A stretch of DNA of 62,738 nt, the filler included. It is 9 parts of 9 records of this genome, joined end to end, with 100 filler letters (N's around TTAATTAATTAA, not from the genome) between each part and the next. Parts side by side here need not be neighbours in the genome. Positions count along the whole stretch, not along the records: positions 1 to 10,143 come from SRR15195285_163; 8 more parts are not named here. One strand, given 5' to 3'. Each line of letters opens with the position of its first letter. Position 1 is the stretch's first letter. Shown piece after piece: positions 1 through 45,400 of the stretch. Under the pieces are notes generated by a model, which did not search any database, was not told the origin of the DNA, and saw nothing but the letters and a program-made list of their open reading frames with translations. The position numbers were made by a program, and so were the translations under genes.

Positions 1-8
1 CGACGATA

Positions 9-54
9 GATCATTTTTTGGTGAAATCGGCAAAATCGATCATTTTTTGGTGAA
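9..54. repeat. 17-bp direct repeat GATCATTTTTTGGTGAA x2 in AT-richer contig-start DNA
   Basis: Identical copies at 9-25 and 38-54. Confidence 0.85.
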
Positions 55-448
55 CACTCTCCCGATTCCGTCCAATCCAGTGGAGGTGGAGGAGACAGGA
101 GGACGTGGTGGATCTGCTTCCGACAAACTTGCCTACGGTATTTCGCAATTTAGCACCATTTCTGCATGGCTTTTTCAGGCAATTGAAAATAAGCAAAAGT
201 CCAGAGTCACACGGAATTCCACGACTCGGGTCGTGCATGCAATACCGGCAGTCAGAACCAGATGGAATTCCGCATTGAATCCGAATTATACATTAATGAT
301 GTCACACGGAGAAGGTATCATAAACTCAGCCAACAATGTGTGACGGTTAGACAGACAGACCGATCCAATTCACCAAGTTCGACGACCACAGTGAGTGCTA
401 GGAGTGCACCATTCGCTTGTCTCGAACACGCGCCGTGACAACGCACAC

Positions 449-3400
449 TCAAACCTCCTCACTGGTCTCAGCGGTCGCGTTGCTGGCGTCACCCAGCTGC
501 ACAGTTTGAGGTGCACCTCCATCTGACATGGCGTGGAGCAGCTCGACTATGTCTGCCAGCTTGTCCTCAAGATCATCTAGCCGACGTCCCGTCTCGATAG
601 ACTTCGTCTGCTCGTTTGTGTCCAGGCGAACGCGAGCCAACGTGTCCAACGACTGCGGGTCTTCATCTTGGTCTGAGCTGCGGCTGGTTGGCAGATTGCC
701 GAGCGAGGGCAACCAAGACGTGTCGGCCAGGTCAATCTTGCTGGCAATGAAGTGCTCAAGTGGCGTCAAGGGTCTGGCTGCCTTGTGTGCCTTTCGTCGC
801 AAGAACACGATTAAGAACACATACTGCATGTACGACGTAGCTTTCTGCTCTGGCACGCTCATGAAGCTGACTCCTGTGATGAAACACGTTGTCTTACGAT
901 GCTTGAGCGCATTTTCCTGCTGCGCCCGCAGCTCGCTGAAGGTGTCGACAATAATACCAGTGATGATGGCAACGACAACTGTGGTAATGAGCACCATGAA
1001 AAGCATTTCAAACAACAGGCGGGTTCCGTGACCGTCGAACAAAGCACCTGGTTCCTCCCAGAAATCCTCTGGAGTATCGCCTTCGGGAAAAACTGGTTTC
1101 TCTAGCCAGTAAATCAGGCCTGTCTGGGTAAAGCCGGCGAACGCATATGAAACGAAGCACGTCAGCAATGTACTGCACGCACCGCCGGGGTTACCTACGT
1201 TTGCATCGCTTCCAGTTCTGTGGTCTTCTCGAATCAGTGTGTAGCCGAAGATGGCCATCAAGTACACCGCCACAAGCGCCAACAAAATAGTAAGCGCCAA
1301 GCGACTGAAGTTGCGCGTAAGCGATCTCAGTACAATCTTTGCGCCATGCATCTTGAATGCGTGAAGCAAGTGGTAGGCGAACCAAAGATTGTTTCGGAAG
1401 TATCCTAGCAACGAAAAAAAGAGGTCGAGCGATACGAAATAGAACTCGTGGTTCCGCCTAAATGAGAACATTAGTTCCTTGGGTGTCGCTAGCACGAACC
1501 CACAGTCGTCATCGGCAAAACGTTTGTCAGGTTGGCTGAGGGCGCGAGTCACCACTTGCAACACACCTTGTAATTTTGACAAAGCGTTCCTGCCTCGTGC
1601 GACGGCATCCTGGACTTGCTCTCGGATACTGCGGTCTTGCTCATTGCCATCGATGTACTTGCGCGCCGCGATTTCTAGTTGTTCGCTGAACGTACCAGTA
1701 CTTCGTTTTGCCTGCTCCAACGAGATCTTCGATGCTTCAACCACCCGCCGGGGATCTTCGGTAGGACCACCCGTATTCACTTTGGACGAAGTCGTACGCA
1801 ATAAACTATGGGAAGCAATATGTGAAGCCTGCTTGATATGGTCGAACCCTAGGCCAAAGTAACTATTTCGATTCCACAAGGATGCCTTAGCTTCAACTCG
1901 AGCTTCTGAAACCCTGTCCACACTGTCTGCTTGCAAAAAGCACACCAGCGCCTCCGATGTCTTACTCGAGTTCTCCCAGATCTGAATTAGTTGAATTTCT
2001 CCGTACACATCGAGGATTTCATGTACCTGTGCTTCAGTTACCCCACGCGGCAGATCTTTGACGAGAATTGTGCAAGAAACGAAATCTGCATACGTCCCCA
2101 CTTGTTCAGTTTTCGACTGGCCCATCTTGGCAATCATTTTCTGCCTAGATTCCACTTTTGCAAGGACAGGGTTTCGCACGAACACGAAATGTACCAAATT
2201 GATGCAGCTGTACAGCACGTGAAAGAGGCACAAATGTCCGGCGAGAGCTTCTCCCTGAGGCCAGCGATCATACGTGTCAGGGCCATCGTCCGAAGCCTTC
2301 AGCGACAGGAGCAAGATACCGTTCAGTACAAAGCTTATGACGAGGAGCGTCCACTTGCCAACGAGACTGGAAATGAGTGACAGTATCCGTTTGATCACAG
2401 TCCTGTTGGCAAGATCCTTGGCACGGTCGATATGAGGTGCTATTTCAATGTTGCGATCGGTCTGCCAGATGTACTCTATCACGCCCTCTACGAACACTGA
2501 CAGCCTGCCAACGTCCCCCCCGTGCTTGTCGTAAGCTTTGTATAGCAGACCCGTGACATCGCTCCAAAACAGTTGCCCAGTTACAGTCTGTACATTAGTC
2601 ATGTCATTGGGAAGCAGCGCCAGATCGAAATACAGGCTTTCAACTTCCTGCCCCCGAATGACCAGCGCATGACCTAGCCGAGCCCGGAAGAACTCAAGCA
2701 AAGGCTTCTGTTTAAGGACTGCCATTAGCGACACCTTTGAACCTCGGGGCAGGTCGATCTCAACCAGCTTTTCTACAATTGTAATCATGGCGAATGATTG
2801 AGCATTCACCCACGCACTCTCACTCAGGGTTTCAGGGACTGTACCGAACGATGTCCTTCCTTCAATTATGCCCTTCAAGTCACGCATATGGTTTGCCCAG
2901 ACCTGAAAATCCAATGTCTGACAGATGGGAAGTACCACCTGCGGATCCGCATGTCCTTCAAGCAGAGCCAGGAGAAGCTCGGTACAGTAGCAGCTTAAAC
3001 GGCAGCGCCGGAGCTCTGGCTTACTCCACTGGTTTTCAGTGCGTGACGGACTTGGGTCATCCAGAGGTAGATGCTTAATGTGATCGAGCGACTCTATCTT
3101 TGCATATTTCATGATGCGTGTCAGCACCATAAAAATACCTGAAGAGGCCACCTGGTTGGCGTTGACCTTGTGCGGGCCCGAAACTAAGTTGATGAGCAGG
3201 CGAATGGCTGACTCAAACATGTCAATGAGTGAAACGCTTTCTTCAGCAAACCATGCAAGTGATGACTCTCCAGCGACTTCTACAGCGATCTCGCGTTCCA
3301 TCTCTACTACCATCTCATAGATATCCGGGATCAGGAGAAAAGTCTCCTCGTGTCCTGTCTGATTTGGAATGTAGTCCTGAAATCCTCGATGCAAGAACAT

Positions 3401-6400
3401 GCAGCTACTGCACAGGACATCGAGAGCGCGAGCTGCGACGGCGAACGTATTGAATCCAGGTTTTGTGTGTTTCTTCTTACGCAACAATCGAAACTCATCG
3501 CAAGCTGTGGTAAAAAGACGCCGGCAGCTGGCCCCAAGCAGTTCTCGTGTACACTTGTTTTTGCTTGACAAGTCTGTGTGCAAGCATGTCTGAACGTCGT
3601 AGTTACCACCACCTACCAGAGCCGACAACAGACGCACAGCTGAAAGGTGCAGCCCTTGCAAGTGTGCCACAGACAGGATCTTCCAGCATAGTAAGCCCCA
3701 CCCTTCTTTGACAAGAGTAATCTGCGACTCAGACGTAGCGATAGACGGATTGTCAAAAATGGAGTTGTTCTCAGTCAAGTATAATTCCAAGATCTGGGCT
3801 TCCTTTAAGCGACGTTCGTCGCCATAAACTGTGAACGGAACTGCCCGTATGACATCCAGGACAGAGCATAGGATTCCCATTTCGTGGTCAGACATGTCTT
3901 TCTCAGTCACACTCGATACTGTCTCAATGCGCGAGTCAATGGCTTTAAACAACGATCCTGAATAACGAGCATCTTCAGATAAGTCGTCTGGCACGTCCAT
4001 CACTATATCGCGTGCAACATCAAGCAGTTTGGCCGAAGCACCCGATGAGGATTTCATATCAACACCGTACTTCGCCTCAAACTGAGCTATATATGCGTTC
4101 CACGCCGTACTTGCGAGCGTGGATGCTGGCGCTGCAGGCTCTCGGTCCGGCAAGTTGGCGCCGGCGCGGCGTAATGACTCACTTAACTGATCTGGCATGC
4201 CGTCGTTCGCTAGCCACTTTTCCACTACATCTCGCAAATGCTCCAAGACCGATCTTTCATCATCACGCAACTCACAGCGCAACGCCTCGGTAGACGTCAA
4301 CAATTTTTGTGCAATTTTACTAACACGTCTCATACAGAGCTCCTTCGCATTTTCATCGAGTTTGAGCAGTTCAATATTAGCCGCGCGTTTTCGTTGCAAG
4401 TCTTGGCGCGGGCATCCAACAGCGTACAAGATGAAAAAGTCGCAAAGTTCGGTCATCACGTACGATCGAAATGCACTTGAAGAATGCGTATCAAGGGCCT
4501 CTATGTCGTCGCAGAACAGCCCCGCCAGCGGCTTACGAGCGCCAACTTGCGTTGAAAGCACGGTCCAAATACCGTTTGCCTTCTCTCGGACAACAGTCGT
4601 CACAAATTCTGAGTCAGAATCGACAAAGACGTCATTCAGGAACAGCACGAGGGCGCGCTTCACTTCAATGAGTTGATCGAGGTGGTGGAACTGTCTGAAC
4701 TCCTGCCTCGTGAATAGGTTGTTGATTCTGCCGACCACTTTATCGAATGAGAGCATACTGGCAGCCTGAAGCTCTGTATGAGGCATCAGTCCTCGTGCAC
4801 AGAGGCCCATCAATTCCAGCAAGGCGCAGTAGTACTTTAATTCTCTCTGAGATCTGTTCAATGCATCATCGGCAGCATCACCTCGAAATGCATGTATCAG
4901 AACCTCATTCTGCGTCAAGGCAGGACCCTCTTCCCACTCATCTTCGTCCAGCGCACAGTCCAAGACGCGTGCTGATTTCTCGATTAGACCTTTCGAGACT
5001 TGAGTCTGTGCGTACTCGACCGATTTGCCGTCTACTTGTACTAGGACATGCAGCACTTCCAGCAACACGTGATGCTTGCCAAACACCCGAATCGCGTCAA
5101 CAGTTTTTGCCACAAGCATATTAGCAGAGGATATCGCAAGCTGACGGTTCCCCGAAAACATTTTGGGCAGAACGCTGGCGACAAGTAACATGATATCTTT
5201 TCGCTGTGAGTATGTCAATTCGGGGTCACCTCCTGCAGGACCGCCTGCGAACAGCGGCATGATCGTAGACTCCATGTATTCAGCGAACACAAACTGCCAC
5301 TCCGCGTCATCATCAGTACAAAGCGTAGCTACAAGCTTCAACGTACTCTGCAACAGTTGAAAATAAGATCCCTGGTGCACGTCATTTGGATGAGATCGCA
5401 TCATGATGTCGAGATGTTTGTCAATTTCAAGGTTCCGCAGGAGCAGACGGGCAGTGGCGGCCGCCTCTGGCAGGCCTTGCGCACAACGATCAGCCATGGT
5501 CTCTGCCAGCGTGATGCACTGCATCACAGACGCCTTCTCTAGCAGACGCTGAACAGCCCTCTGGTACGATGTTACTAGTTGGTGCAGTGTGAGGAACAGT
5601 TCGGCGTCCGCATTCGAGGCCAGGAGAGTCACCTCGGTGAGAAACTGATGAAACATCTGATGTTCGGCCCGAAAGTTATAGAGCGCTGCGAAAGACGTGA
5701 GAACTAATTCAGTTTTGTGGCTGTACCGCAGACCATCGAGCAAAATATCCGTGAGAACTTTGTCGTCAGTTTTGCCGCTGAAAAGTTTTGTCTCCTTCTG
5801 AAATTTCTCATCAGCTTTGAGAGCATTTTTTGCTGCGCGCTGCGCTGCAACAATCACCTGCACATCGGCCGTCTTTACGATGGTATCAACACCACCATTC
5901 AAAACAGATTCCTCCTGCAGTCCATTGGCTGCAGTGGGCGAAGACGTTGGCGAAGACTCTTCCACTTCGAATGTTGATGCGACCGCCAACGGATTCTCCA
6001 TGGCATGTTCTTCTTTCTCTTCCGTAGACTCTACTTTCCCGTTTGAATGCTCAGCATCCAGACTGGACCCGTCTGTCTTCACGTGATCAGAGAGCTGTTG
6101 CAGCGCGAAGTTCAGCCTACTACTTGCCTGTATCCCGAATAGATCGTTGAGGATCTGCAAGGAGGTGGTTTTCAGTGACATAACGGTAAGATTATGGTGG
6201 TTCGGCGCAAACCTGCCACTTGACCCAGACTTTGACAGTTCCTGCAGCTGTAGCATGTCCAGATGTTCTCGCTCTCGTCTTCCTAAGTAGCCAACATCTC
6301 CTCGGCCATCTAGCAGGCTCACAAGCAACGGCACAAGGCCCTGCAACGCGGGGCCTAGAAGCAGAACGGCGTCGTCCAGAGCGTCCGGGTCATTAGCACG

Positions 6401-9400
6401 CGGATCGTAGTAGCCCTGTAAAATCATAAAATGTATCACATCAAGAACTTCGAGAATGAATTTGTTTCTGGCAAGATCTGCTGCGTTCACGTCCCCAGCA
6501 AGGTCCGCCAAGACTTTGTTAAGTACAGTTACGAGGTCAGTGAAGCCGGGCGTCGGTGCAGAGCCACCTTGGAACGCATCAGCATCATCCTCATTTGTCG
6601 ACACTCCCTGGATGTCCAACGCGGGCCAAATTCGTGCCCTCTGCTGAGTTTGCTTCTGCGTGTTTGAAGTCTGCCTATCTACGTACATGTTTCGCATGGC
6701 TTTCAAATAGACTCGCCGCACGTCCCAGCTCTGCTCAGCTCGATAGCCGCCGCAGTGAGCATTCGGATTTTCTATCTTGCTGAGAATGTGAGCGTACGAA
6801 AAGTTAAATTGAGGCACGTCCTCAAGCCACAATTGCAAGCCATCCGCCATATGACCCGCACAAGTGGCAGACGCGAGCTCAATCATTGCCAAATTGAATT
6901 GATATCTGACCGTATCGGGGGCGCGGATTGCAGCCTCATCTACAACTGTGCCTGCCTCGGAGCTGTGCGGCTCGTGAAAGAGGTCACGGGGGAGTTCCTT
7001 TCTGATGGCCTCGACAACGTCAGACTGGTTTGAGTCCACAGGGCTTCCGTTCTGGTCAAAGCAAATTTGCGCTAAAAATACTGCAAAACGGGAGCGCCTG
7101 AGAGAGACTGTCTGCTTCCAGAACTCCCCAACAAACCTAGTCAGCTCACTGCTCATTAGCAATTCAGGCGTTCCATCAAACATGTCCGAGACAACAGTCG
7201 TCACCCCAAAACCGTGCCCAACTGCTGAGAAAAGGAAGTCCTGGTATTTGAATAGCTCCACCGCACAGGTGGAGTTGTCCTTAACCATACAGTGCAGCAG
7301 ATGGAAACACGCGCGTACCATCAAAAGCACGTAGCGATCGTGACCAGGACTGTCTGGCTTATACAGGCCTTCTTCTTCTTCCGCCCTCGGACGACCGGTG
7401 GATTCGTCGAATTTATTCCTTGCGTTGGAGGCGCTGTTCATCACCCAAGGCAAAGCACAATATCGTGTCATGGTACATGGGCAACAACGTTCTACTGATG
7501 CAAGCCTTACCGAAGAGCACTAACATTTTCCTCCCCCAGGAGCTCGTAAATGGCCTGCACAGGACTCGTTGTTAGTGCAGCAAACCAAAAATCTACCAAT
7601 CAACGTGCGACGTGTCGCACCTGCAGTAAGCGCACAATAAATTTGATTGTGCCTAACCCGAGCAAGATACGTTGCTGCCGGTGGTCGGGCGCTCCCAACC
7701 ACTGGAGCGGGTCGTCTCCGATCCCAGAGACAAGGCTGTTAATGAAACACCGCAAGTCATTCAGCACAGGGCTTGCCCATTCGTTCCAGTGGTGTGGAGG
7801 AGGATGAACGTATTTAGCCCACAGCATAGCCGTGCGCTCTTCGACGTCTGATCCAGCTCGACCCGCTGCTACTGCAGCCGCACCCTGATGATGATGGTTA
7901 AGCGACAGGTGCGGCAGGCGTGTCTTGTGTGACTTGCCCTCTCCTTTTCCAGCCTTGCGCAAGGCCAGTATTGTTTCCACTTCCTGGTTGAATTGCCAGA
8001 GCCCGTCAAGACCCTCTTCTCCCGCTTGAAAAGCCTTGAGCCACTGCCGGGCAGCTGCCCCGATACCGAGCGGATGGAGCACAAATGCATCGCTCTCGTG
8101 GTCCTGCGACGGGTCTAACATCTGCAACCGAAAACACGCCGTAGGGTCATCCGCACTCTGCGAACCTCTTTGATGTTCTTTCCCTTGGTGAAGAACTTTC
8201 CCAGACTGCAGATTCATCAAGAAGAACTTGCTCTCATCGTAGCGCAGCCCAAGCTCCGTCCTCATATCATTATCAAATGGCTTCAACAACCACTGCGACA
8301 GTCTATCCCCAGGGTCTGGTGACAGTGAAACTTTTCCAGTTTCAGCATCTTCCGCCAGAAAAAGCTCTTCGCCGCTCATCATCGCAGCAGCCAAGCAGTA
8401 CCCTTCTACGCGCACGCCGGCAGCAGTTGTTACTGTCGTACCGCTCCAAGACATTCGAGGAACCATGATCTTCCACACCAACTCAGCAGAGATCGTGGAC
8501 TGCGGGTCTGCATCTAGTGAGTCCGCGATCGGTCGGAACAACCGTGGTGCTGGAAAGGAGTTCGAGTCACCAGCATCGATAGACAAGTACCCTTGCGACT
8601 GCCTATGGAAAATCTCTACGTAGTCACCGCCTCGCACGACGTAATCATTCTTAGCACCGGACTCCTGATCTTCCTGCAGCGTTGTGTATTTTGCCACAGG
8701 TACAATTCGAAATTGCGATCGCCAACGGTTTTCCACTGCAGGACACAGGCACACCGAGATTAGCGACATATCTAGCTCAGAGTTCTCTGAGCAGAGGGCT
8801 GCTTTCTACGAGGGTGGCTCTGTTGAAAACACTACAGCATGAGTCAAACACAGCTGGCAGCAAAAGCGAGGCATACAGTTGTTGAGCGGGGACAAGTTGA
8901 GCTCCACCCGACAATCTGTGTCTGGCGCAAACGTGTCTTCGTGGCCATTCATTCGTTGCTCCGAGTCCCTCAGTTCCGTCCCAAGCTCAGTCTGCCGTTC
9001 GCGGTCCTTGCCGACGTGCAGAAAAAGCTGGGATGACTTCTTCATCGCCTGAATCATGACTGTGTCGCCGAAGCGGATGGGCTCGCCCTCTTTCCGGGTG
9101 CGGAAACCAGGGATAATTCGGAACCAAGAGTGCTTGGACCGATTGTCAGGATGAGCGAGGCTAGCTTGCAGCGCCGCTGGGTCCTCGACCGCAATCTGCT
9201 TCCTTAGCTCCAGGTAGTCGCCCGCGGAGTGCTGAAACTGGTACACCCCCCCGAAGAGGGCAGGCTTGCCTCTTTGTGAGCGCCGTACAGTGCGGTTGCC
9301 GAGATCCTCTTTGGCTGCATCTCGCTTGAGCGCTTCGCCTTCGTTGTGGTCGCCTCCGCTTCGCTCTTCCCACCGGCGTTGGGCCTTCGATGCGGCATAC

Positions 9401-9905
9401 TGGTTGGGCGTGGTCAGGACGAACCGGCACAGCTGTGGGTTCGGCGGACGGCCGTTTCCCACAACATCCTGTGCAAGCGGCCCATCGGCACGTCAGTGTC
9501 AGTCTGCTGCGGTCCTCACACTCAGCCAGAACACATGGGCACGCGTGACTGCGTAGGACCTTGGGCAGCGGGCTGTCTCACCACAACATCTGCAGACGAC
9601 CTCTTCGTAGTGAAGTCGCAAAAACACGAGCGGTCGGAATTCCGCGCTCCTGCGAACCCGACGACTTCGCTGGGGCCTCTCGCTTCTTCTAGGTGCCATT
9701 TGTCAGTTGGCGTCACCACCTCGAGAGCGAAAGCGTCGCCGACCTGTGAGTTCATGGCCAAGCATTATCGGCGGCACCCAGGTGAGAGGTTGCACGTGCT
9801 GGACAAGGAGTCCCGGCACATGAGCGACCAAACGAGACCGGAACTCACTTGCAGCACAGCCATCTCGTCAATTTGTCGCGAGCCTGCTGTGCCGGCAGCC
9901 TTCAT
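449..9905 (-). CDS. ITPR: Inositol 1,4,5-trisphosphate receptor-family (ITPR/RyR superfamily) Ca2+-release channel, ~2984 aa, 6 exons
   Basis: Exons 9905-9849, 9743-9582, 9468-8877, 8735-7621, 7554-7511, 7433-449 splice via GT-AG in consistent phase (8955 nt). N-terminal LQVGDAFALEV and WFRIIPGFRTRKEGEPIRFGDTV match the ITPR suppressor/MIR region; LINLVSGPHKVN matches RIH-associated; six-TM region ends GIIVDTFSELR..KTTCF as in ITPR S6. Confidence 0.9.
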
Positions 9906-10143
9906 CTTGCCGTTCCCGTCTGCTCGGCCCTACTACACGATGCGTCACCACCCGCCACAGGGTGACTTCAGCCTGCAGTTGGACGGCGCGTAGAGTCGCC
10001 CTTAGTGCCTTGCCCACCCAGAACAGCCTACCAGGCCCGCTGCAATCCGAGAGCCCCTGGCCCTCCTCAACCCGTCAACAACCAAGCTGCATCGCCCCTC
10101 GTACTCCGCTACCGGTACCGTCCACAACCCGAGCGATCATCAT

Positions 10144-10243
10144 NNNNNNNNNNNNNNNNNNNNNNNNNNNNNNNNNNNNNNNNNNNNTTAATTAATTAAN
10201 NNNNNNNNNNNNNNNNNNNNNNNNNNNNNNNNNNNNNNNNNNN
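10144..10243. other. Artificial contig spacer (Ns around TTAATTAATTAA); same spacer at 17048-17147, 20936-21035, 30069-30168, 34625-34724, 38519-38618, 42301-42400, 58991-59090
   Basis: Eight 100-nt N blocks, each with a linker carrying stops in all six frames. Confidence 0.99.
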
Positions 10244-16695: not shown

Positions 16696-17147
16696 GCAAT
16701 CTTTGTGCGTGACGTTCGAGGTTATCATTAAATCTCGTTTACTTGCGTCCAGGCGTACACCCACGAGCAGTGCCCCAAATGCTGCCGCGTGTCTGACGAG
16801 CAGTGTCGGCATGTCGCATCGAGCGGATGTGATGCCGCGGAGGATCCGGTGGGGGCACCCAACTTGTGACAGTCATTGCAAAAAATGTACCGGTACCGAC
16901 GGTAGGATCCTACTCGTGTAAGTTGAAAGCCCCTTGGGCTCTCAAGCAATGCGCCTACGCACGCTAGCGCGCGCGTAGACTAATAGAGGCAGAGCTGCAG
17001 GAGCAGCTCAACCTTCTCGATGGCGACGTTGGTCGCCGCGGATCCAANNNNNNNNNNNNNNNNNNNNNNNNNNNNNNNNNNNNNNNNNNNNTTAATTAAT
17101 TAANNNNNNNNNNNNNNNNNNNNNNNNNNNNNNNNNNNNNNNNNNNN

Positions 17148-20935: not shown

Positions 20936-21437
20936 NNNNNNNNNNNNNNNNNNNNNNNNNNNNNNNNNNNNNNNNNNNNTTAATTAATTAANNNNNNNNN
21001 NNNNNNNNNNNNNNNNNNNNNNNNNNNNNNNNNNNACCACCACCACCACCACCACCACCAGCAGCGCCACCCAAGCCACGCAGGCTGCGATTGCTGAGCG
21101 GCGCAAGCTCGAGAATGCAGCCGGTAGCAGGCTGCTCAGGATTCATCATGCAATCCACACTCTCCTGACTCAGGCTCAGCATCCCACGCCGGCCGCGATA
21201 CTGGGAAATTGGCCGATAAGAGAGTCCCGGCTGCTCACCCTGAGCAAATTCTAAAATGGACGGATTTTGACTGGAGGGGGTCTTTTCTTTAGTGAAATTC
21301 ATTGACTGGCCAATTCACTGTGACCCAGAAATCCTAATCGGCCGCCGCCGGCCCGCGTGGAGTTGTGTGATCTGCAGCAGTTGGTCGCCGCTGATTTGAC
21401 CGCCCCATACAACTGACCTGGGGCGATACCGGCTGGG

Positions 21438-29724: not shown

Positions 29725-30404
29725 ATACGATACGCGCCTCCGGAACGAACTCACTACCTAATGCCCTGGGCAGCAACGGCAGCAGCGAGGTGCCAGTCCG
29801 CGGCGCCGGGCGACGGGGCGAGGGCCGGCGTCGAGGCGCGTTGCCGCCGGTCCCGGTACCTGTCGATCCGCCGCGGCGCCGGTGCGAAAATTTGCTGGAT
29901 CTAAGAGTCACATTATGATTCAATGGTAATGTCGTACGCAAGCGCTGCTGCGTGCTGGCTAGCTGGCACCGCGGGCGGAGGTCGCCCCTTGGGCTGCCCG
30001 GGCCTGCTCACTGGGCTGGAGGCGTGCTGTGTGCAGCAGGCCTGCCAGGTGCGCACCTGCTGATGGAGNNNNNNNNNNNNNNNNNNNNNNNNNNNNNNNN
30101 NNNNNNNNNNNNTTAATTAATTAANNNNNNNNNNNNNNNNNNNNNNNNNNNNNNNNNNNNNNNNNNNNTAGATATTTATATTTTCCGTTTCCAAAGAGGT
30201 TAATAATTCGGCACTACACGGTAGATCAAATGAAGATCTACATTTCTACACCGCCCAGCAGTTCTTGAGCAGTCGGTGTGGGCCATGCCACGGACCCACC
30301 CATGCTCGCTGCTGCATCTGAATTTTGACCGTGGCAGTGGCTGGCACACACAACGTCTGTCTTCGTGTGCAGTCGTCCTGTCTGGAGCGGTGCCGCCGAC
30401 CACG

Positions 30405-34298: not shown

Positions 34299-34724
34299 GT
34301 ATTCTTTCGCGCATGCGGCGGATGATATCATCGGTGAGGATCAGATGGACAGGCAGGGCTGTGGGGAAGGGAATGTCGGCGGGCGGGGCCCCGGGGTGTT
34401 CTTGCTGCCGCTGTTGGCCTGCCTGCTTGTTGCGAGCCCCCCTTCTTGCGCCTGTGCTGCTTGGTCTTGCTCGCATGATTCGGGTGCCGTGGGGGGGTCT
34501 GGTCCGTCCGGGTCTTCCCGCTGTTGCGGTTCTTCTAATCAATTCTGCTACCGATGCCGGTCCGGCAGCGGTCTGTCTCCGTCCCGGTCGCTGCTTGGGC
34601 CCTTCCTTGAGCCCCTCCCCCCCCNNNNNNNNNNNNNNNNNNNNNNNNNNNNNNNNNNNNNNNNNNNNTTAATTAATTAANNNNNNNNNNNNNNNNNNNN
34701 NNNNNNNNNNNNNNNNNNNNNNNN

Positions 34725-37700
34725 TCATAAGCAACCATGCGCACAGTGTCCGCTAAGACGAGTTCGAATTGGTCATGAAGGCCCTCAAGCTGGTCGTTAT
34801 CCTCAACTGTCGCAATCTCCTGCCACTCGCCATACCCAACACGACATTCTATCTTGTAGCTGGAGATCGGCACAGGAGCCAGCCAGAACGATATCGCACG
34901 GAGCATAAAGATTCCTGCCATTGCGACAGACCACCGCTCAAGGTATCATAGTAGCAAGAGCGCTCTTTCAACGGCGTGTACAGTGTGCTACGTCATAGAT
35001 TGTCTTCGTACCTTCAAGATCAACCTCAATCCACGGCGTCTCATCATCTTTCCTGCATACCCATCGATTGTCCCAGCCATCCTTCGAACCGTTCACTGCT
35101 TTTGCCCCGCCATACTCCTGACCGTCTTCCACGAAGGCTGAACTAACCTGAACTGGTTTGCCCAACGCTACGTTTACCGAGCCTTCCCCATCTACCGAAA
35201 GATTCACTGTTGCATCGCGCGCTTTCTGCCACTCTCGTGCGTTCGACTTGGCCATCGCCCAGCCAGGACTACCCGTGATATGCGTCGACGGGTCGAAGGC
35301 TTGATCGCAACAAGACCGCATGAATGCTTCGGTATCAAATTTGCGGAATGGTAGTCGGTAATCGTCCTTCTCGATGCCCAGATCTGCACGGATCTGCGGC
35401 ACCCCATGCAAGGCCATCGGCAACGCCGTCAGGAGAGGGGGGAAGAACAATATGGAGGCATGGATGGGCAGCTAAGTGCATTATGGCGCAGTGCAATTCA
35501 GTGTAGTGCACCCTGCCGAGCTTATTCGCGGACACACCTTTTCATACGGGATGTGATGCGGGCAATTAGCGAGCAGGTCTGGGGGGCCGCTCAACTCTGT
35601 GAGCAGCTTCTGGTACAGGGGTGCGAGCCGGGCGAGCCTGCGACATCGGAAACAGCATCATCGTGTGTGCATGCATGCGTCGGCAACGGAATGGCTGGCG
35701 TACGTTTCGCGCGGCTTAAAAATCGGATATCCATATCTTTCATGGATGAAGTGCCCATGCTCCCACTCGCACATCAGATGAAGATTAAAGCTCTGTCGTC
35801 CCCACCCCTCAAGCTTTCCCCACTTTGACGGTAGTGGATTGAGACCCTTCGCGCCCTCGGCACTCCCACCTTCGCCCAACTCCATGCCTGCTTCTGGTGT
35901 TGCGCCCGTCTCATCTGGTTGAGGCTCCAAATGTGGGTTGGGATCAGCTGGCAAGATAGCCCACATAGTTGGATACGGCAAGTGCTGGTCTCTACGCAAG
36001 CGTCGGATCCAGTCGACCTCACCTCCCATTCCAAAGGTACCGACTGTCGACCCGGCCATATTGATAGTAGGTGTCTCGGTTTGTGAACCATCGGGCATTG
36101 GTTGCGGAACAGGCACGACAGGCAGTACTGGTCCGGATTGCTTGGCGGTAGTCCAAACGCCTTCCTTCGGTGACCATCTCCAAACCTGAGTGACCAGGTT
36201 CCCCTTCTCATCCAGTGTGCGCACTGGCTTGCGCCGTCCGTCCTTCACTTCTTGCTCGTGCGACGTTGGCGGTGGAACGGCGTCCACATCAGCTGGATGG
36301 ATGTCATCCTCGTCCTCTTCTCCTTCGAAATCTAACTCCAACTGTCTGGCTTTAGCTGCGGACGACACCAGCCGCGGAACTCCTCCCATAAAGAATTTGT
36401 GTTGCAAGGCTTCGAGAGGAAGCAGGCGTTTTGGCTCTACTAGTCCCGACCGTGGCGCTCCTGAAGGTAGCCCAAGCAACCTATTAATCAGTGTGTACGA
36501 CAAACGGTCCAGCCCAGCCTCACCCCCAGGTATGAGATAGGCTGGCAGACGATACAGAGCGGGCTCTTCAGGAGTCTCTGGCCTCGGAGGCAATGAAACC
36601 ATGCCTGTCATGACGTCGTCGTTTTCATCAAGCATCAGATGCCCGGCAGCTACCTGTTGCTTTATGTATTCGGCTGCTTCCTCTGCCTTGCGAGCCTCGC
36701 GCGCTGCGGCCTGCGCTTCTACCTGCCAAGGGTGCAGCTTGGGCTTCGGTGGTCGCTGCCAGAGTTCTTCCGCATCGACATGCGTTAGCGGAACACCAAG
36801 CAGCAGCTCGCACAGCACACAACCGAACATCCAGAGGTCAACCTGTGCCGTACATAGATTAGCTGGATCACGCTCGGCACTTGCTTGGCCGTCTGGGTCG
36901 TCAATGCCAGGATCGATTGCTATTTTTCCACCTGCACTCTGCTCGGATGCGCGCGCGCCTGTCGCCTTTTGGTAGGCCAGCAGCTCCGGCGGACAGCATG
37001 TTAGGTGATGAATCGGAGGGAGCATTGCAGTCGCCGCGTCGTCACCGGTCCCGCGCGCCAGATGCAAATCAAGCAATCTCCAAGACCCATCCCACGCACG
37101 ACCAATTGTCGATGGGCAAACGAGCGTGTGTACAAGGTTGACAGCATGAATGTTGTGGAGGCTGCGCAGAACGCCCTCGGCAATATACGCTGCTTCGTTC
37201 CGTGCCAGTCTACCTGCACGGATGTCGAGGTAGTCGGCGAGGGTTTCCTCCCACCCATCGACAACGATGCAGTGCGGCAGCGGACGGGTAGGGTCTTCGA
37301 AATCGTCAATGATTCTCCCGGCGCTAGGCATTGCAGGGGGCATTCCCTGCGCAGGTGTGGGCGGGGGCATCACCGAGAGCCGAGTGTGAACCTCGTAGGC
37401 ACGCTCCCAGTCCGCGCGAGTCTCCGAGAATATCAAGGCGACGCTGTCGCCAGTTGCGGTGTCCTCGCCGAAGCGTGCCTGCACCTGACAGCCAGGAGCG
37501 TCCTGTGCGACTGACATCGAGCGCTCGCGCCGCTCGTGGCGCTGCGTGAGCCGGTAGCGACCACGGTACAGACCCGTGAGGTTCTCCTGTGCCGATAAGA
37601 TCCGCGCCGTCGCTGATCCCGCGCCACCGACTGCCGCGCAGGCGACCTGCAGCGCTGTCTGTCCCGAGCGATCCTTACGCTCCACGTCGACCCCCGCTTC

Positions 37701-38165
37701 AATGAGCAGCTGCGCGGTTTCGCTGTGGTCGTGATCCGCCGCGACATGCAGCGCTGTCCGTCCGTCCTTGGCCACGGCGTTGACGTCGATCTTTGGGATC
37801 GAGAGTAGCAGGTGTAGCACGTCCACGTGCCCGTTGCGCGCGCCGGCATGCAGCGGCGTGCTTCCGCCGTTACCTTTCGCATTGACGTCCGCATCCTTTG
37901 CCAGAAGGTGGCGCGCGCAGGCGGTGCGGCCGGCCGTGCAGGCGAGCTGCAGTGCCGTGTAGCCGTTGCCATCCGTCTGATTGACGTCGACGCGGCCGTC
38001 CGACAGCGCTTTGACGCCCGCCAGGTCGCCGAGGAACGCCGCGGACACGAGCTGATCCGCGAGCTCCTGCTCTTCCTGCAGATCTTCCTCCAGCACGATC
38101 CTACCCCCGCTCTCGTCCACAATCAGCCCGATGCTCGAGGCCGAGACCACCGGCGCGAGCGACAT
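34725..38165 (-). CDS. Ankyrin-repeat + kinase-like (pseudokinase) + F5/8 discoidin-like protein, multi-exon, 3' truncated
   Basis: About four ankyrin repeats (GYTALQLA, GSTPLHAG, GRTALHVA, GQTALQVA); kinase-fold remnants (IHAVNLVH, WRLLD, CPPEL, VDLWMFGCVLCELL); later exons give NVALGKPVQVSS..AVNG..RW..PWIEVDL and YKIE..WQEI. Confidence 0.7.
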
Positions 38166-38620
38166 GCCGAGCTGTCCTAGCGCCACCTGCTCAGTCAGCC
38201 CCAGCTCTCCCGCCAGCCGCCCTCCTGCAGCACCATCCTCTGCAGCACTGACACGCGTAACGCCTGTCCCAGCAGATCACGCAGCAAGGGCGGCGGCGCT
38301 GGCAGCGGGTGGTCGGGCTTCTGCTGCGCCACGCCTGACGCCCATGGCCAGCTATTATTCGCAGAGCTGGTGCTATTGCCGTCGATTGCGCACCGGCGGC
38401 TGCGGCGGGGCCGTCAGCCCTCACGGTCCTTCGGTCCACGGTCCAGAAATAAATACGAATAATGCGGTCCCCGGATTCCGGAGTCATGAGTTCTTTCGTC
38501 CTGTAATTAGAGTCTCTCNNNNNNNNNNNNNNNNNNNNNNNNNNNNNNNNNNNNNNNNNNNNTTAATTAATTAANNNNNNNNNNNNNNNNNNNNNNNNNN
38601 NNNNNNNNNNNNNNNNNNAG

Positions 38621-41600
38621 CAGCAGCAGCAGCAGCAGAAGAAGAAGACATCAGAGCAGGCGACTGATGTTCTGCCGCGCTGCGTCGCTCTGCATGCCTG
38701 GGACCAGCAGGCTGGTGCAGACGCGCAGACAGATTTGCGGTTCGTGGCCGGCGATACCATTCTCGTTGTGAGCGAGAAGCCAGGACAGGGCTGGCTGACA
38801 GGCCGTCTGGTGGGTGACGCTTCGGAGCGAACCGGCATCTTTCCAGCGAATTTCGTCCGCCAGGTTGCCATGGGGACCAGCGTTGCCAGCGATGCGCGCG
38901 CCCGCACTCCGGACCCAGGGGATGATCCGGGAGACACGGGTCGGCCGCGCAGTCCCGACCCGGGCGACACGACCAACACTGCTTTGGCTGAGCGCGCTAG
39001 CGCGGACACAGATCCGGAACTTGATCGACAGGCCAACTGGAGTGCCACAACACCTGAGGAGCTCGCAAAAAAGAAGGGCGCATACGTGTACGACGAAGCG
39101 ACAGGACAGTGGAAACTCAACGCTGAGCTCGATGCAAAGCAGCAGGAGCGGCAGGCAGAATACGAGTTCTACCGGTCACTCTTTCAGCAGTGTGCGAACG
39201 AGGTCGCTGCACTGCGGCGGTCGTACGACACGGGCGTCAAAGCACGATTCCGATCAATGGCAAGGCTCAGCCAGACGCTGGGGGAGGATGCTTCCCAATG
39301 GACGAAGCAAGCGGTGACGGATGCGCGCTGGGCGTCCATCGAAGCTGCAGCCGGCGCCTCCAGCTTTCGCAAGCAAATGCCTGGCGCGAGCGTTGCTCAC
39401 AAAGGCGCCGCTGACAAGGCTGAGGTGCTACGAGGGCAATTGGATGAGGCCGAAGCAGCAGTAGAGGCGCTGCAGCCGCGAGATGTGGTTGAGCTGCACG
39501 GCATTGCTAATGCGGCGAGGCAACATCTGAACGGATGTCGTGGGGAGGTCATTGAGGCGCGCGGAGAGGACGGACGGTGTCCAGTGCGCATCTCGCTGCC
39601 TGATGGATCACAGGTGCAGAAGCGTATGCGCTCGTCGCAGCTTAGACGTGTTGCACCACTCACGGTTGGAGATACTGCCGAAGTAATTGGACTACCATCG
39701 TCGAATCTACTCAACGGTGCCCACGGGACGGTAGAGGCGTACGACTCGAAGCAGCGGCTGTTCGCGGTGGCCATGGCTGGGGCAATTGACAAGAACGGCT
39801 TGGCGGAATCAGTCTTACGACGCTTCGCGCCGACCAACCTACGGCGCGTGTCATCACTCAAGGTAGGCGATGAAGTCCAGGTGCATGGACTGACGGGTAC
39901 AATGCGCGGGTTAAATGGGTGTAGTATGTACATCCACAGGTGGGACTCGGTGCAGAGCCAGTTTGTCTGCGCGAAGATTACTTCTAGTGAGTTGCAGGCT
40001 CGCCGAGAGTCTCGCAATCAGCAAATGGAGAGCCGCAGAGAAGGGCGTAAAGTTTTGATTCACCACGACCCGATCTCAGGAACTACTTCGTATGACACGA
40101 CCGGCGATGGTTTACCCGATGCCTATGATACGACTGGCGACATGAAGATTGACACATTCATGGAGGTGCCGCTGGATGCGGACACCGAAGAGCACGAGAA
40201 GCGACATTTCATGTACGCCAAGAATCTGCGCAAAAAAGCGCAGTGGGAACAGGGTGATCAGGTTGTGATTCACAACCTACAGTCGCTTGAAGGTCAGCGG
40301 CTCAACGGCATGCATGGCACGATCATCGCATATGCATCTGGTCGTTATGTAGTCGATGTCTCCAGAGCTAACGATGCGCCGAAAAAACTGTCGCCACACA
40401 ACCTACGGCGTGTGGGAGCTCTGCAAGCTGGAGACACAGCCGAGGTGCATGGACTGACTGGAGATCCAGAAAGGGTTGCACTGAACGGGCTCAAAGCCAT
40501 CGTAAAAGAGTACCTGCCAGAGCATGCGCTGTTTGTCGTAAGCGTAATGTTAATGGCGGAGGACGAGGATAAACACGACCACACTCGCAGTAGATCGCCA
40601 GAGGAGTTCCGACTACCAGCCGTCAACCTGAGGCCAACAATACGAGTAAATCTAGAACGGCGTCTCAAAATGATCTTTGACACACTTGATGTAGACAACA
40701 GCGGCTCTCTTACTCGGGACGAACTTGGACAGATGAACGAAAGCCTAGACATAGAACTTCGTGACATGTTATCGGCTGTGCTCGTAGGCGCTCGCGAGAA
40801 GCAGCTGACGGATGGGGAGCAGGGCGTTGACAAGGTTACAAGCGACAATCAGGACGAGATTCCGATCGACATTTTCAAGCATCTGGATGTCTGTAAATCC
40901 AGGTCCGACGGTACGTCTGCGTATGTTCCAAACAGTGAAGGAGATCTTGAAGAGTTGGAACTTCAAGGAGATGGGATTGTTACTTGGGAAGAATTTCGAG
41001 CGTTGCTGGGTCCGGACGAGGCAGGTGCACCGGAACCCGAGCCGGAGCCCGAACTGGAGCCGGAACCGGAACCAGAGCCTGTGCTAGTTGCTGCTGCGGT
41101 AGCTATGCTAGGGGACGACCCCGGATCGTGGGAAGGATACACTACCATTGTAGGGGCACTGGCGCGGGTGCAGATGGAACGCACAAAGTTGCTCGACGAG
41201 CTAGAGCTTGAAGCGGGGCGGAAACGGCAAAAGATTGTGCTGGAAGTGGCGAAACAAGAAAAGGTTGTGCAGCAAAAGATGCAGGCGTTCAAGATGTCTC
41301 AGGACCTTGCGCTCGAAGTTTTCGATCAGAAGCATGCGGAAAGCACTGCTAGTAGCGATAGCGGAAGCGACGCGAACAACACTGCTGAGGAGCAAAAGAA
41401 TGTAGAAACCGAGCGAAAAGCCCTCGTCGATGATCAGATACAAGCCTACTACATGATGAAGACGTCGCTGAAGCAACAGGTGTTGAAAAAGTTGAGCAAG
41501 CAACAAAAAACCTGTGAGACAAGTATCGCCAAAGCCCGCACAGCCAAAATCGAGCAGATCGAGCGTGGAGCGCACGGTGTCCTTATCAAATCGGGCGTCC

Positions 41601-42300
41601 ATCGAGAATCGTTCCGCGTTGATGCTGGCAGTCTTGCAGTGCACGGTGAAGAAGGAGCCGACACGGTGATTTGCCCCGTCGGCACAGAGCCAGCTGTACA
41701 GGTCGAAGGCACAAAACCGAAGCCTTTGCGGGCTGGCAGTCAAGTCAAGGTACTCAAAAGCCCCAAAGGCGTAATCGCTGGTCCTGATCGCGCAATAATC
41801 AAGAGCATCATTTCCCCACCAGAAGTGCCGCATCTGAAGTACAAGATTGCCTACGACGCGTCCTATCGAACCACATTCTTCGCGGATAAGGACCCTGGTC
41901 TGGTGGAGGTGGATGCCGACAGCGTGGTTCCATCGCGCGCACGTGGCTCTGACGTCTCGGCCATGGGAGGGCTCAGCGTTGCAGCAACGACAGTTGCGCC
42001 AGGAGATCGGATGACAGTTGTTAGCACCAAACCTGTTCCGCTATGGGCGCACTCTGAGAATGGCCTGTCCTCAGATGCCAGCAAGGTCAAAGACGTCGGC
42101 GTGGGAACACTGATCGAAGTCGTAGAAGTGAAGGAATGGACACAGCAAGATCAGAGAGATGATGCACAGCGAATCGCGGAGAAGAAGGAACAAGAGCGTT
42201 TGGAAGCCGAAATGGAGGCAGAATTGCTGCTTGAACAGTACGATGGCGACTTGGCCGCAGTGCGCAAAGCCATGGAAAAGCAAAATCATACATGTATGTA
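38621..42300 (+). CDS. SH3 + five GL..LNG repeats + EF-hand + coiled-coil protein (partial at both ends)
   Basis: SH3 ALHAWD..DLRFVAGDTILV..GWLTGR..GIFPANFV; five repeats (V)GDxVxVHGL..LNG..G....NLRRV; EF-hand FDTLDVDNSGSLTRDEL; (PE)n linker. Confidence 0.8.
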
Positions 42301-42400
42301 NNNNNNNNNNNNNNNNNNNNNNNNNNNNNNNNNNNNNNNNNNNNTTAATTAATTAANNNNNNNNNNNNNNNNNNNNNNNNNNNNNNNNNNNNNNNNNNNN

Positions 42401-45400
42401 TGTGTGGTCGAGAGCCGATGCACCTACACACCTGCGTACGGTAATGACCTGGCTGAGACCTGCGTTGCCACAGATCTTGCGGCGTGTGCCGCCGTAGCCG
42501 TGGACGCCGATGCAGAGACGTGCGCTTCGGCGGGCGCATGTATATACGTTGTACCCACTGCTTGCTCTGCAACAGATGCCAGCACATGTGCCGCAGGCAA
42601 CATTAGCCTACCCAGGGATATGTTTGAGCAGGACCAGACGTCATGTGAATCTCAAGGAGAATGCAGATACACGCCCCTCCACCCACTGACTCACAACTGT
42701 GACGTACATGCAACATGTAGCCATGTATCACCTAGCAGTTTCACTTGTGAATGCAACGACGGATTTGTTGGCGATGGCGCCGTTTGTGAACTAGAGTACT
42801 TTGGGTGCAACATCATTGATTCCATCAACTACAATCCGCTTGCCAATGTTGACGATGGCAGTTGTATTCCCATCGTGCGCGGTTGCACTGATGCGCGAGC
42901 AGACAATTTTGACCCTGACGCCAATACTGACGACAGCACGTGCTTTTACAACGAATGCCTGTTTGGGACGTATAACGCGACGACACAGAGAGGTCACAAC
43001 TGCGATGGAAACGCTACGTGCATCTATGACGGACTCGGCATTTTCAGCTGCGCGTGCAACACTGGTTACATAGGAAATGGTACGTATTGCGAAATTGTTG
43101 TTGAAGGATGCATGGATGCTGCCGCCTTCAACTATCTCCCACAGGCGAATGTCGACGACGGCGGTTGCATCGCCAGCGTGTGGGGTTGTATGGACCCTTT
43201 GGCGATGAACTTTGATCCATCAGTCAACCGCGACGATAGTTCTTGTGATATCAATCCGTGCCTAGTTGAGCTAGATGACTGCCATGAACAGGCGCATTGT
43301 GGTCATATAGGGCCAGGCCTGCACGTGTGCACGTGCATGGAAGGCTACGTTGGCAACGGAACGTTTTGCGTCGTGCCCATCTATACCTGCACATATCCAG
43401 TCGCTGTTAACTACAACCCAGCCTGCAAGCTAGCGGTCGGTGCATGTCTCGAGGACGGCAGCTGCAACTTCCCGATCTATGGCTGTACTGATTCGTCAGC
43501 TGACAACTGGAATATGAATGCAAACGTTGACGATGGGTCCTGCATGAGGTTTGGTTGCACGATCGAAGAAGCGGCCAACTTCGTGGAGGGCGCAACTTTG
43601 GATGATGGCAGCTGCCTAGTGTACGGCTGCATGGACCCGGGTGCCAACAATCACAACGCTGTGGCTAATCGTCCTACTAACGAGGAGTGCACCTACACAG
43701 TCGGTGGGTGTACCTACGTCGATAGTCTCAATTACAACCCAGCAGCTAATGAAGATGATGGGAGCTGCATCCGTATTCGGCGCGGCTGTACTCACGTAGA
43801 TGCCGAAAACTTCGATCCCCTGGCCAATGTTGACGACGATACCTGTACTCGAATTCCCTGTTACCGAGGGGATGACAACTGCCATCAGAATGCTACCTGC
43901 GTACATCTCGGTCCAGGCAGCTTTGAGTGTACGTGCAGGCCTGGAACGGTTGGCAACGGAACTCATTGCGATGTAGCTATCCCTGGCTGCATGGACCCTG
44001 CCGCCTTTAACTATGATCCAGTAGCGAACGTTGAAAATGACACGTGTGTTGATGTGGTGACCGGATGCACTGATGAGGTTGCATTCAATTTCGATCCGAA
44101 CGCAAACACAGACAACAGTTCATGCGTACCGAAACTAAAAGGCTGCACTGATGTGCGCGCCCTTAACTACAATGCGACTGCAAATGTTGATGACGGCTCA
44201 TGCGAGCTCAATTTCTGTACGCTCAACTTGCACAATTGCTCTAGCCACGCTGATTGCACGTACTCTCCCCGACATATGGTTCACGACAGCAACTGTTCCA
44301 CTTCAGTAGTGTCGTCAGTTTCCGCTCACATGAATTGTTCCCACACGGTTGCAGAAGAGTTTTCTTGTGCGTGTATAGCTGCGTTTCTTGGTGACGGATA
44401 TACATGTACTCCACGTATATTTGGATGTACAGATGCTACCGCTGTCAACTACAACATTGCTGCAAACACAGACGACGGAACATGCATTGCTACTGTGGAA
44501 GGTTGCACCAACCCGGTAGCTTCCAATTACTTGCATGCAGCAAATGTTGACAATGGCGGCTGCATCATTCATCCATGCAACTCGACTGAGCAACTATGTT
44601 CCGATTTCGCGGATTGTGGTGTAGTCGGGGATCATTACACTTGCAACTGTCGCACAGGGTACGCTGGCAATGGTACAACGTGTTTCCAAATCCTCGGGTG
44701 CACGTATCCGCATGCGATGAATTTCAATGCATTGGCCACACAGGACGATGCATCTTGCTTGTTTCACATTTGGGGGTGTACAGATGGCAACGCTACCAAC
44801 TACATCGCCGCGGCTGATATGGACGATGGAAGCTGTATGTATGTGGTACCTGGATGCACATATGGAACTCCTGGGTGCGAATATGGCGAGCCTGGGTGTG
44901 CGTACAACTACGATGACAATGCGACAATTGACGATGGAAGTTGCATACATGTGGCAAATGTCGGATGTATGGACCCGACGATGTTCAGCTTCAGTTCTGA
45001 TGCAAATGTTCATTCCGATGAGGCTTGTGTGCCATTTGTGTACGGGTGTACCGACAGCTCCGCGTACAATTTCTTGCCCACCGCCACCTCTGAATCTGGA
45101 AACTGCTCATACAATGCGTGCGAGACTGGAAAACACCTGTGCGATGCCAATGCAACCTGCATATACACAGGACCAATGAATTACACATGCAACTGTGTCG
45201 ATGGTTACGTCGGCGATGGCGTGCTACAGGCCGATCCAATTTCAACATACTGTGGCCCTCGTGACAGCCATGACTGCTTGGCGTTCGAGAAAAACGGAAC
45301 AAATATCACTTGCGATGCCATAGGCGCCCTGGCTGGAGACCCTGCGTTTGTGCTCCGCCATCGCTGTTTGCCAGGTTGTGAACCAATACGGTTTGGATGC

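Follow-up and report, generated by a model that had tools for sequence, protein, structure and literature searches.

Inositol 1,4,5-trisphosphate (IP3) receptors (IP3Rs) and ryanodine receptors (RyRs) are among the best-studied ion channels. In animal ITPR1-3 the chain combines Ins145_P3_rec, RIH and RIH_assoc domains with a C-terminal six-helix pore domain, and in RyRs, which belong to the same superfamily and have a homologous pore, a folded cytosolic domain (VSC) lies between the membrane helices S2 and S3. This domain, described as helical, bridges S1-S4 and the C-terminal domain, and in RyR the S2-S3 region serves as a hub for gating. Here we describe a gene, on the minus strand of a 62,738-nucleotide stretch of joined DNA records (the whole stretch analysed, called the window below), for an IP3R/RyR-type channel that has RIH and pore domains like those of ITPR1-3, a sub-threshold RIH_assoc match and probably an Ins145_P3_rec domain, and whose S2-S3 loop holds a divergent RNA-recognition motif (RRM).

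No description of an RRM within an IP3R/RyR-type channel was found in the literature searched; the supplementary domain tables of the oomycete and diatom channel surveys could in principle list such architectures. The accessible parts of the diatom and oomycete channel surveys do not mention the RRM, and that of the Picozoa genome paper does not mention calcium, channel, RRM or receptor. Among the matches listed for literature joining RRM with calcium release channel or RIH terms, the available text concerns unrelated subjects (RBM20, RYR1-related myopathies, insect RyRs). Domain shuffling in protists has added further domains to the scaffolds of Ca2+ channels, as the accessible part of a paper on the oomycete PKD-RyR-domain (PKDRR) channels describes (PMC4820453); those channels differ from the present one in that a RyR repeat is added to a polycystin scaffold, and an RRM is not mentioned in that part of the paper.

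Gene layout and channel domains

All coordinates are window positions, and residue numbers (aa) are those of P0001, the translation of the stop-to-stop frame 449..7519. The DNA of the window is eukaryotic, with a GC content of 50-60% and long open frames, and the channel gene is laid out as follows:

449..7519, minus strand: large open frame of 2356 codons plus a stop at 449-451, coding for most of an IP3R/RyR-superfamily channel
7555..7620, minus strand: putative 66-nt intron (GT..AG, CTAAC branch-like site, in-frame stop)
7621..8739, minus strand: upstream exon or exons, homologous to the N-terminal 400 residues of P0002, the closest homologue (tblastn, 54% identity)
8806..9492, minus strand: open frame with an N-terminal Ins145_P3_rec domain (Pfam, 40.7 bits; cut-off 23)

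The 5' exon border of the large frame is placed only to within 7381-7519. The putative intron coincides with a 22-residue gap in the tblastn alignment to P0002, and an acceptor-like site lies near 8736-8740. The frame 8806..9492, with its beta-trefoil domain (PF08709), probably represents the first coding exon or exons of the same gene, a join that we infer from the sequence. The gene would then span about 449..9492 and encode a product of roughly 2,900 residues. A public gene model, P0207 (2330 aa, same 90% cluster), which by its length matches Met27 to the end of P0001, counts the RRM segment as coding. No Rfam family matches over 1..10100, and over 1700..2250 none of the other reading frames is open for more than 139 codons.

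In the large frame, Pfam recognises RYDR_ITPR (RIH, PF01365) at aa 60-172 (36.4 bits; cut-off 22.3) and Ion_trans at aa 2043-2201 (38.3 bits). RIH_assoc (PF08454) at aa 1361-1469 scores 19.5 bits, below its cut-off of 28.5, and is found above the cut-off in the relatives P0004, P0005, P0014, P0015 and P0018. Four alignments were built, the first three of which also served as profiles: A1 from S1-S4, A2 from five homologous inserts, A3 from 23 sequences of the family and A4 from 22 sequences. Over the pore part, A3 matches RyR2 (E 1.2e-23) and ITPR2 (E 1e-22), and also ITPR3 and ITPR1. Judged by these matches, the window protein is a member of the IP3R/RyR superfamily. The membrane region and its surroundings were assigned as follows:

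2288..2386, minus strand: S1, hydrophobic segment 1, aa 1712-1744 (Kyte-Doolittle; helix in a low-confidence model)
2174..2248, minus strand: S2, hydrophobic segment 2, aa 1758-1782 (Kyte-Doolittle), ending in the family-conserved F..V..P motif
2075..2173, minus strand: helical continuation of S2, aa 1783-1815 (predicted secondary structure, two models)
1895..2074, minus strand: RRM core, aa 1816-1875 (AlphaFold model, Foldseek, VIA-align, profile matches)
1805..1894, minus strand: variable alpha2-beta4 loop and probable beta4, aa 1876-1905 (low confidence, pLDDT 40-47)
1448..1804, minus strand: remainder of the S2-S3 loop, with a linker of low conservation followed by a conserved, predicted-helical stretch (aa 1926-2024) that leads back to S3
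923..1447, minus strand: S3-S6 and pore loop, aa 2025-2199 (Ion_trans; family profile against RyR2/ITPR2; alignment)
452..922, minus strand: C-terminal cytosolic part, aa 2200-2356 (alignment)

S3 and S4 lie at about aa 2025-2068, S5 at 2067-2098 and S6 at 2165-2199. In alignment A1 the residues of the S2-end motif (F79, V82, P85) are invariant. By the hydropathy scan the loop between the second and third hydrophobic segments counts 242 residues, in agreement with the value of about 240 given by a first-pass annotation of this DNA, which had been made from the sequence by a model and had first proposed an RRM here.

That annotation had called the protein a member of the IP3-receptor family, which holds at the level of the IP3R/RyR superfamily. 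The comparison of IP3 contacts covers the ARM1 part, whose basic and Tyr residues we take to be IP3-contact residues. In animal ITPR2 the ARM1 motifs read NRERQKLMRE and DYRKNQE, and neither is conserved here: the aligned residues are KDNSTCA in the window protein, DREQQEILQG in P0002 and QQRILLGL in the upstream exon 7621-8739. It is therefore doubtful that the protein is an IP3 receptor in the strict sense. The window protein also differs from animal ITPRs in the selectivity filter, where GFTQTGL (AGFTQTGLIYWLE) stands in place of the GGGVGD of animal ITPR2, with similar residues in P0002-P0005, and after S6, where the zinc-finger pattern CFICG...H...H (CxxC...H..H) of animal ITPR2 is replaced by CFITG and a 9-residue deletion. 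The filter lies at about 1000-1100 of the window and the post-S6 site at about 850-900. Both the GGGVGD filter and the C-terminal CxxC..H..H pattern are missing in all five family members aligned, and the absence of the zinc-finger pattern sets their cytosolic gate assembly apart from the one in animal channels. A zinc finger is also present in the C-terminal domain of RyR (PMC7570887).

An RRM fold between S2 and S3

The peptide CTILVKDLPRGVTEAQVHEILDVYGEIQLIQIW..SEALVCF..ADSVDRV is encoded on the minus strand at 2074..1910 and corresponds to residues 1816-1870. It had been noted as an RNP2-helix-FG-beta-RNP1 pattern within 1850-2080, a span that does cover the RRM core and lies, as claimed, in frame within the large exon. 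The likeness to RRMs goes beyond chance in the profile searches. The motif after helix 1 reads YG where FG had been noted.

A similar segment is found at the same place in P0002-P0005, which are 64-29% identical to the window protein over the channel part, and RRM_1 matches four of these five proteins (the window protein included) at E<=0.1. When profile A2 was compared with the PDB sequences, 247 were matched at E<=1, and by name the best 60 of the 247 are RRM proteins, with one unnamed RIKEN entry besides. The matches to solved RRM proteins span E 2.4e-10 to 1e-3, the first of these values belonging to PABP, and include hnRNP A1 (4e-8), Hrp1 RRM1 (27.5 bits as a single domain), TDP-43 and DAZL. 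Profile A3 divides cleanly: positions 355-556 match RyR2 and ITPR1-3, and positions 176-275, between S2 and S3, match RRM proteins (PABP 4e-12, hnRNP A1 3e-8). Against 1.84 billion cluster representatives, A1 gave 1477 matches at E<=1e-3, of which the best are channel fragments with S1/S2 contiguous with the RRM, followed by multi-RRM proteins matched at profile positions of about 125-185 only. RRM_1 reaches its gathering score in five of 27 channel relatives (P0013, P0015, P0018, P0026 and P0038; 22.2-27.9 bits) and E<=0.05 in seven more, with nothing in the remaining 15; P0015 and P0018 carry RIH, RIH_assoc and RRM_1 in one chain. A single-sequence phmmer search of the S2-S3 loop against the PDB gave nothing better than E>0.1, and the helical part of the loop has no significant family or PDB match. 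In the ESM Atlas only Ion_trans clusters scoring below 0.9 were found and no RRM-bearing cluster. A homologue search with A1 restricted to longer proteins returned none, which is weak evidence.

A first AlphaFold run on the S1-S4 stretch of five sequences gave a mean predicted local distance difference test (pLDDT) score of 47.6 and was used only for the order of secondary-structure elements. The model of aa 1800-1905 built with A4 (m9e637415afd1) has a mean pLDDT of 75.7, with 54 residues at or above 90 and block means of 92-97 over model residues 11-70, which cover a helix, beta1, alpha1, beta2, beta3 and alpha2. The RRM fold, for which the first-pass annotation had proposed structure prediction as a check, is thus obtained with confidence over beta1 to alpha2, with these predicted elements:

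aa 1817-1824: beta1
aa 1829-1839: alpha1
aa 1842-1849: beta2
aa 1854-1861: beta3
aa 1864-1874: alpha2

A short helix that contains a Phe nearly invariant in the family (aa 1813) immediately precedes the RRM. Foldseek matched the model to the PDB 87 times at E<=0.001, and among the matches listed all are RRM domains (La, CstF-64, RBM7, UP1, Prp24, PABP, HuR, U2AF65 RRM2, SF3b14). With VIA-align, run on the top 995 Foldseek chains, the rows listed are again all RRMs, including Prp24 (Z 10.8) and the PABPN1 RRM (Z 10.6, root-mean-square deviation 2.2 Å over 83 residues), and the alignments extend to model residues 96-106. After the variable loop past helix 2 the relatives in A4 conserve a [Y/E]-H-L-[FLI]-x-[VIL] motif, which the window protein has as SHIASHS at about aa 1898-1905 and which probably forms beta4. 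Profile searches and structure prediction thus agree that a divergent but true RRM-fold domain, extending from aa 1816 to about 1905, lies in the S2-S3 loop of this IP3R/RyR-superfamily channel, as had been proposed.

Family members and distribution

The insert is present in all 30 distinct aligned family sequences (the window protein included) and in P0201-P0203, that is, in at least 33 distinct relatives. These are 50%-identity representatives or search matches; the near-identical P0010 was omitted, and P0049, a fragment without a match, was not aligned. In the id-based alignment the complete pattern is also seen in six relatives whose scores with the small profile were low. Whether the architecture is common in protist ITPRs had been raised as a point that could count against its novelty, and the insert was found in none of six other IP3R-type proteins, which score below 0 or give no row: two fish ITPR2, an unnamed canonical IP3R, two Trypanosoma IP3Rs and an Amorphochlora protein. 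In the two aligned fish ITPR2 nothing aligns to the RRM, and S3 follows after no more than a short stretch, the helix assignment there being our reading; in the ITPR comparison P0006 and P0008 gave no RRM profile match.

Full-length members have a length of about 3,000 aa and contain Ins145_P3_rec, RIH, RIH_assoc and Ion_trans. Pfam finds no RRM at E<=0.01 in any of five long members, and the precomputed domain lists lack PF00076. Since a Pfam scan misses the RRM in most members, domain-architecture surveys would have overlooked the insert. In four paralogues (P0022, P0029, P0030, P0034) an acidic insertion of 15-20 residues with D/E-x-D-G-like stretches occupies the beta2-beta3 loop of the RRM.

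Among 20 clusters looked up, five have EukProt labels, all of them Picozoa (COSAG01, COSAG02 twice, COSAG03, which is Picomonas judraskeda, COSAG06 and SAG25), and no other taxon labels were found. The record of P0002 is itself labelled Picozoa COSAG06. This source has members with Glu at position 3 of RNP1 (E-type, P0002) and with Trp there (W-type, the P0030 cluster), which must therefore be paralogues within one organism. The DNA and RNA runs with the channel gene are marine or seawater metagenomes. The source of the window thus appears to be a Picozoa-like marine flagellate. The RRM insert defines a channel family with multiple paralogues. The architecture that the first-pass annotation took as a sign of a re-wired channel class is thus the rule in a family of at least 33 relatives, all of whose taxon labels are Picozoa, and is not peculiar to the window gene.

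In a quick tree of the pore region (26 rows, from an unfinished search) the canonical IP3Rs form one clade (SH-aLRT 97) beside the subclade of the window protein, and P0028 and P0009 stand on very long branches.

The RNA-contact surface

The canonical RRMs of hnRNP A1, PABP, Hrp1, Prp24 and PABPN1 share with the insert the fold, detectable sequence homology, the Y/F-G after helix 1 and the hydrophobic core pattern of beta1 and beta3. They occur in soluble RNA-binding proteins, whereas the RRM of the window sits in a loop of a membrane protein. Within the new family beta1 has the consensus T-V-H-V-Y-G-L, and beta3 has N-S-W-A-[LIVM]-V-x-F. The window copy departs from this consensus in both RNP motifs, with I-L-V-K-D-L against V-H-V-Y-G-L in RNP2, and T-S-E-A-L-V-C-F against x-S-W-A-[LIVM]-V-x-F in RNP1.

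Aromatic residues of RNP1 and RNP2 stack on RNA. At the stacking positions the window RRM has L1819, E1856 and L1858, none of them aromatic. The first-pass annotation had described the RNP aromatics as partly lost; the loss is borne out and is larger than stated, with all three gone in the window copy, and for this reason its caution on RNA binding was justified. Across the family (n = 30, the window protein included), RNP2 position 2 is His, Tyr or Phe in 24 sequences and RNP1 position 3 is Trp in 25. RNP1 position 5 is aliphatic in all 30 and never aromatic, and just 2 of 31 aligned rows have a basic residue at RNP1 position 1. The L, E and L of the window copy recur in its orthologues, with Glu at RNP1 position 3 in both P0002 and P0003; in P0019 and P0024 that position is Gln. 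Arg or Lys is found in helix 1 in 24/30, before the YG motif in 15/30 and in beta2 in 17/30, positions at which the window protein has His (H1833), Val and Gln (Q1846), respectively. The net charge of its RRM core is -6, within a family range of -6 to +7. From the L/E/L set, the lost basic residues and this charge we infer that the window domain is a non-RNA-binding 'pseudo-RRM'.

Protein-binding pseudo-RRMs, such as the U2AF homology motifs (UHMs), likewise have degenerate RNP motifs, and helix 1 of the window RRM is acidic (EAQVHEILDVY). UHMs are defined by an Arg-x-Phe motif between helix 2 and beta4. This R-x-F motif is absent from the window sequence ARVEAKASLWNRNSYFGLGFDH after helix 2, and we know of no Trp-peptide partner of the window RRM, so that the likeness to UHMs would be one of function only.

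Position of the insert relative to the RyR VSC domain

The window protein and the RyRs both carry a folded domain between S2 and S3 that is cytosolic in RyR and presumably so here, the RyR domain being helical and the window insert consisting of an RRM plus helices. RyR2 aligns to A3 only at positions 8-160 and 355-520, and RR_TM4-6 is unmatched in the window protein at E<=1. As the loop has no sequence link to RyR, the resemblance is an analogy by position and not a sign of membership, and the RRM looks like an independent insertion at the site of the VSC domain. A second, unrelated globular domain would thus have been recruited to the S2-S3 site, in a deep-branching, uncultured eukaryote lineage and in a family from which the filter of animal type, the zinc finger and the residues contacting IP3 have also been lost. 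Such a family would allow gate control by the cytosolic face of the voltage-sensor-like domain to be studied as a natural experiment, and would offer a testable candidate for an RRM used outside RNA metabolism, possibly as an RNA input to an ion channel.

Possible roles of the inserted RRM

On balance, and by a modest measure, we consider it probable that the minus-strand gene encodes an IP3R/RyR-type channel whose divergent S2-S3 RRM acts as a cytosolic regulatory or docking module through protein contacts. With six membrane helices and a cytosolic N-terminus, the S2-S3 loop would face the cytosol. It carries the helical continuation of S2, the RRM and then about 100 helical residues. Supported by these extensions of S2 and S3, the RRM would form a module beside the gate. 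This module may contact other parts of the channel (the C-terminal domain or the S4-S5 region) or a partner protein, and would be functionally analogous to the VSC domain at the same site in RyR.

Several observations weigh against this reading. RRM_1 scores 13.4 bits on the whole window protein (aa 1818-1861, E 0.072; cut-off 20.7), and on the isolated 87-aa piece, the HMMER comparison proposed in the first-pass annotation, it gives E 7e-4 at 19.9 bits, still below the gathering score of 20.7, which the five relatives named above reach; RRM_8, RRM_3 and RRM_5 match this piece more weakly. Beta4 has no confident placement, and the model ends at aa 1905. The cytosolic orientation, the location in the endoplasmic reticulum (ER) and Ca2+ permeation are all presumed, and the animal filter motif is not conserved. 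What the RRM touches is likewise a proposal, made by analogy. The Trp, His/Tyr and Arg/Lys surface set of the family would suit a nucleic acid or another anionic ligand, and the quick pore tree does not decide between E-type and W-type ancestry at RNP1 position 3.

Contigs from four RNA-library runs are collinear with parts of the channel gene, without joints, and over parts of the RRM segment this holds for contigs of three studies (X16, 1797-2003; X19, 1646-1838; X11, with depth in every bin of 1349-2696). The X11 contig 7382-7680, however, is also collinear through the putative intron 7555-7620. The RNA contigs therefore do not prove that the RRM segment is part of spliced mRNA, and the X11 library may hold unspliced RNA or DNA carry-over. 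The RNA-seq confirmation envisaged in the first-pass annotation thus extends to collinearity over the segment and stops short of its splicing. Variant letters in the contigs (7 synonymous, 17 non-synonymous) were not used, their depth being low and errors likely.

It is unlikely, in our view, that the RRM entered the family ancestor in a single insertion and survives only as a structural relic, a folded spacer for the S2 and S3 extensions with neither ligand nor partner. The loss in the window lineage of residues conserved in other paralogues would fit a relic, as would the wide variation among paralogues in loop length and in the parts flanking the RRM, and the long beta2-beta3 insertions of some. 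Against it stands the conservation of the domain. The window protein is 70% and 64% identical to P0002 and P0003, respectively, over the RRM, compared with 74% and 62% over S3-S6 and with 35% and 11% over the linker just after the RRM (its identity to P0002 is 59% over the helical part of the loop and 80% over aa 2200-2275). These identities indicate that the insert is under selection as strong as that on the pore. Moreover, surface-type Trp and Arg/Lys residues are conserved across deeply diverged paralogues, which is more than a mere spacer would need.

We consider it quite unlikely that the beta-sheet of the inserted RRM serves to bind RNA or a different anionic ligand (a nucleotide, for example), with the window copy using a non-canonical surface. 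Such binding could tether mRNAs or ribonucleoproteins (RNPs) at a Ca2+-release site or make gating ligand-dependent. The homology to bona fide RNA-binding RRMs speaks for it, as does the retention by most paralogues of the Trp, the His/Tyr/Phe and the Arg/Lys of helix 1 and beta2 at the frequencies given above, with charges up to +7; many known RRMs also bind RNA without the full RNP consensus. The conserved set suggests that ligand binding may be the ancestral function, merely modified in the window copy. In the window copy itself the three non-aromatic stacking positions, the H, V and Q at the basic positions and the charge of -6 argue against RNA binding, and in the family as a whole so do the rarity of a basic residue at RNP1 position 1 and the constant lack of an aromatic at position 5, where an aliphatic side chain on the surface of the sheet points to a face that is covered or binds protein. 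RNA binding is thus more plausible for the Trp-type paralogues than for the window copy.

In a bolder form of this idea, to which we would give little credence, the voltage-sensor-like domain of Picozoa-type channels includes an RRM whose Trp/His/Arg face binds RNA or another anionic ligand and so couples it to gating or placement, the E-type copy of the window being a paralogue in which that input was lost or changed. If this is true, ion release would be linked directly to RNA or RNPs at the surface of the ER.

It is highly improbable that the resemblance arose by chance or that the segment lies outside the mature protein as an intron or assembly artefact: the sub-threshold single-sequence Pfam score and the RNA contigs without proof of splicing status would allow it, but profile matches to solved RRMs down to E 1e-10, a confident RRM model, a segment in frame and free of stops within 2356 codons, protein-level conservation in 33 relatives from independent assemblies, and RNA contigs of three studies collinear without joints over parts of the segment all stand against it.

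Other features of the window

Eight masks of 100 nt that look identical, each made of 44 N, 12 readable bases and 44 N, lie mostly between genes (10144-10243, 17048-17147, 20936-21035, 30069-30168, 34625-34724, 38519-38618, 42301-42400 and 58991-59090). The mask at 42301-42400 interrupts what appears to be a single very long open frame. Beyond the channel gene the window contains, among others:

35658-38276, minus strand: open frame containing ankyrin repeats, with a weak match to a protein kinase
38621-42298, plus strand: giant open frame with SH3 and EF-hand matches
42401-56683, plus strand: giant open frame of 4760 aa with seven EGF_3, REJ, TSP1, Filamin and TIG matches, a polycystin-1/REJ-like extracellular architecture
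59206-61227, plus strand: complete-looking gene for BBS2 (BBSome subunit 2)

The frames 38621-42298 and 42401-56683 may be one very large gene. The BBS2 gene points to a ciliated or flagellated organism, and the genes that accompany the channel gene in the window (USP, Las1, BBS2 and the giant EGF/REJ/TSP1 protein) fit a flagellate eukaryote.

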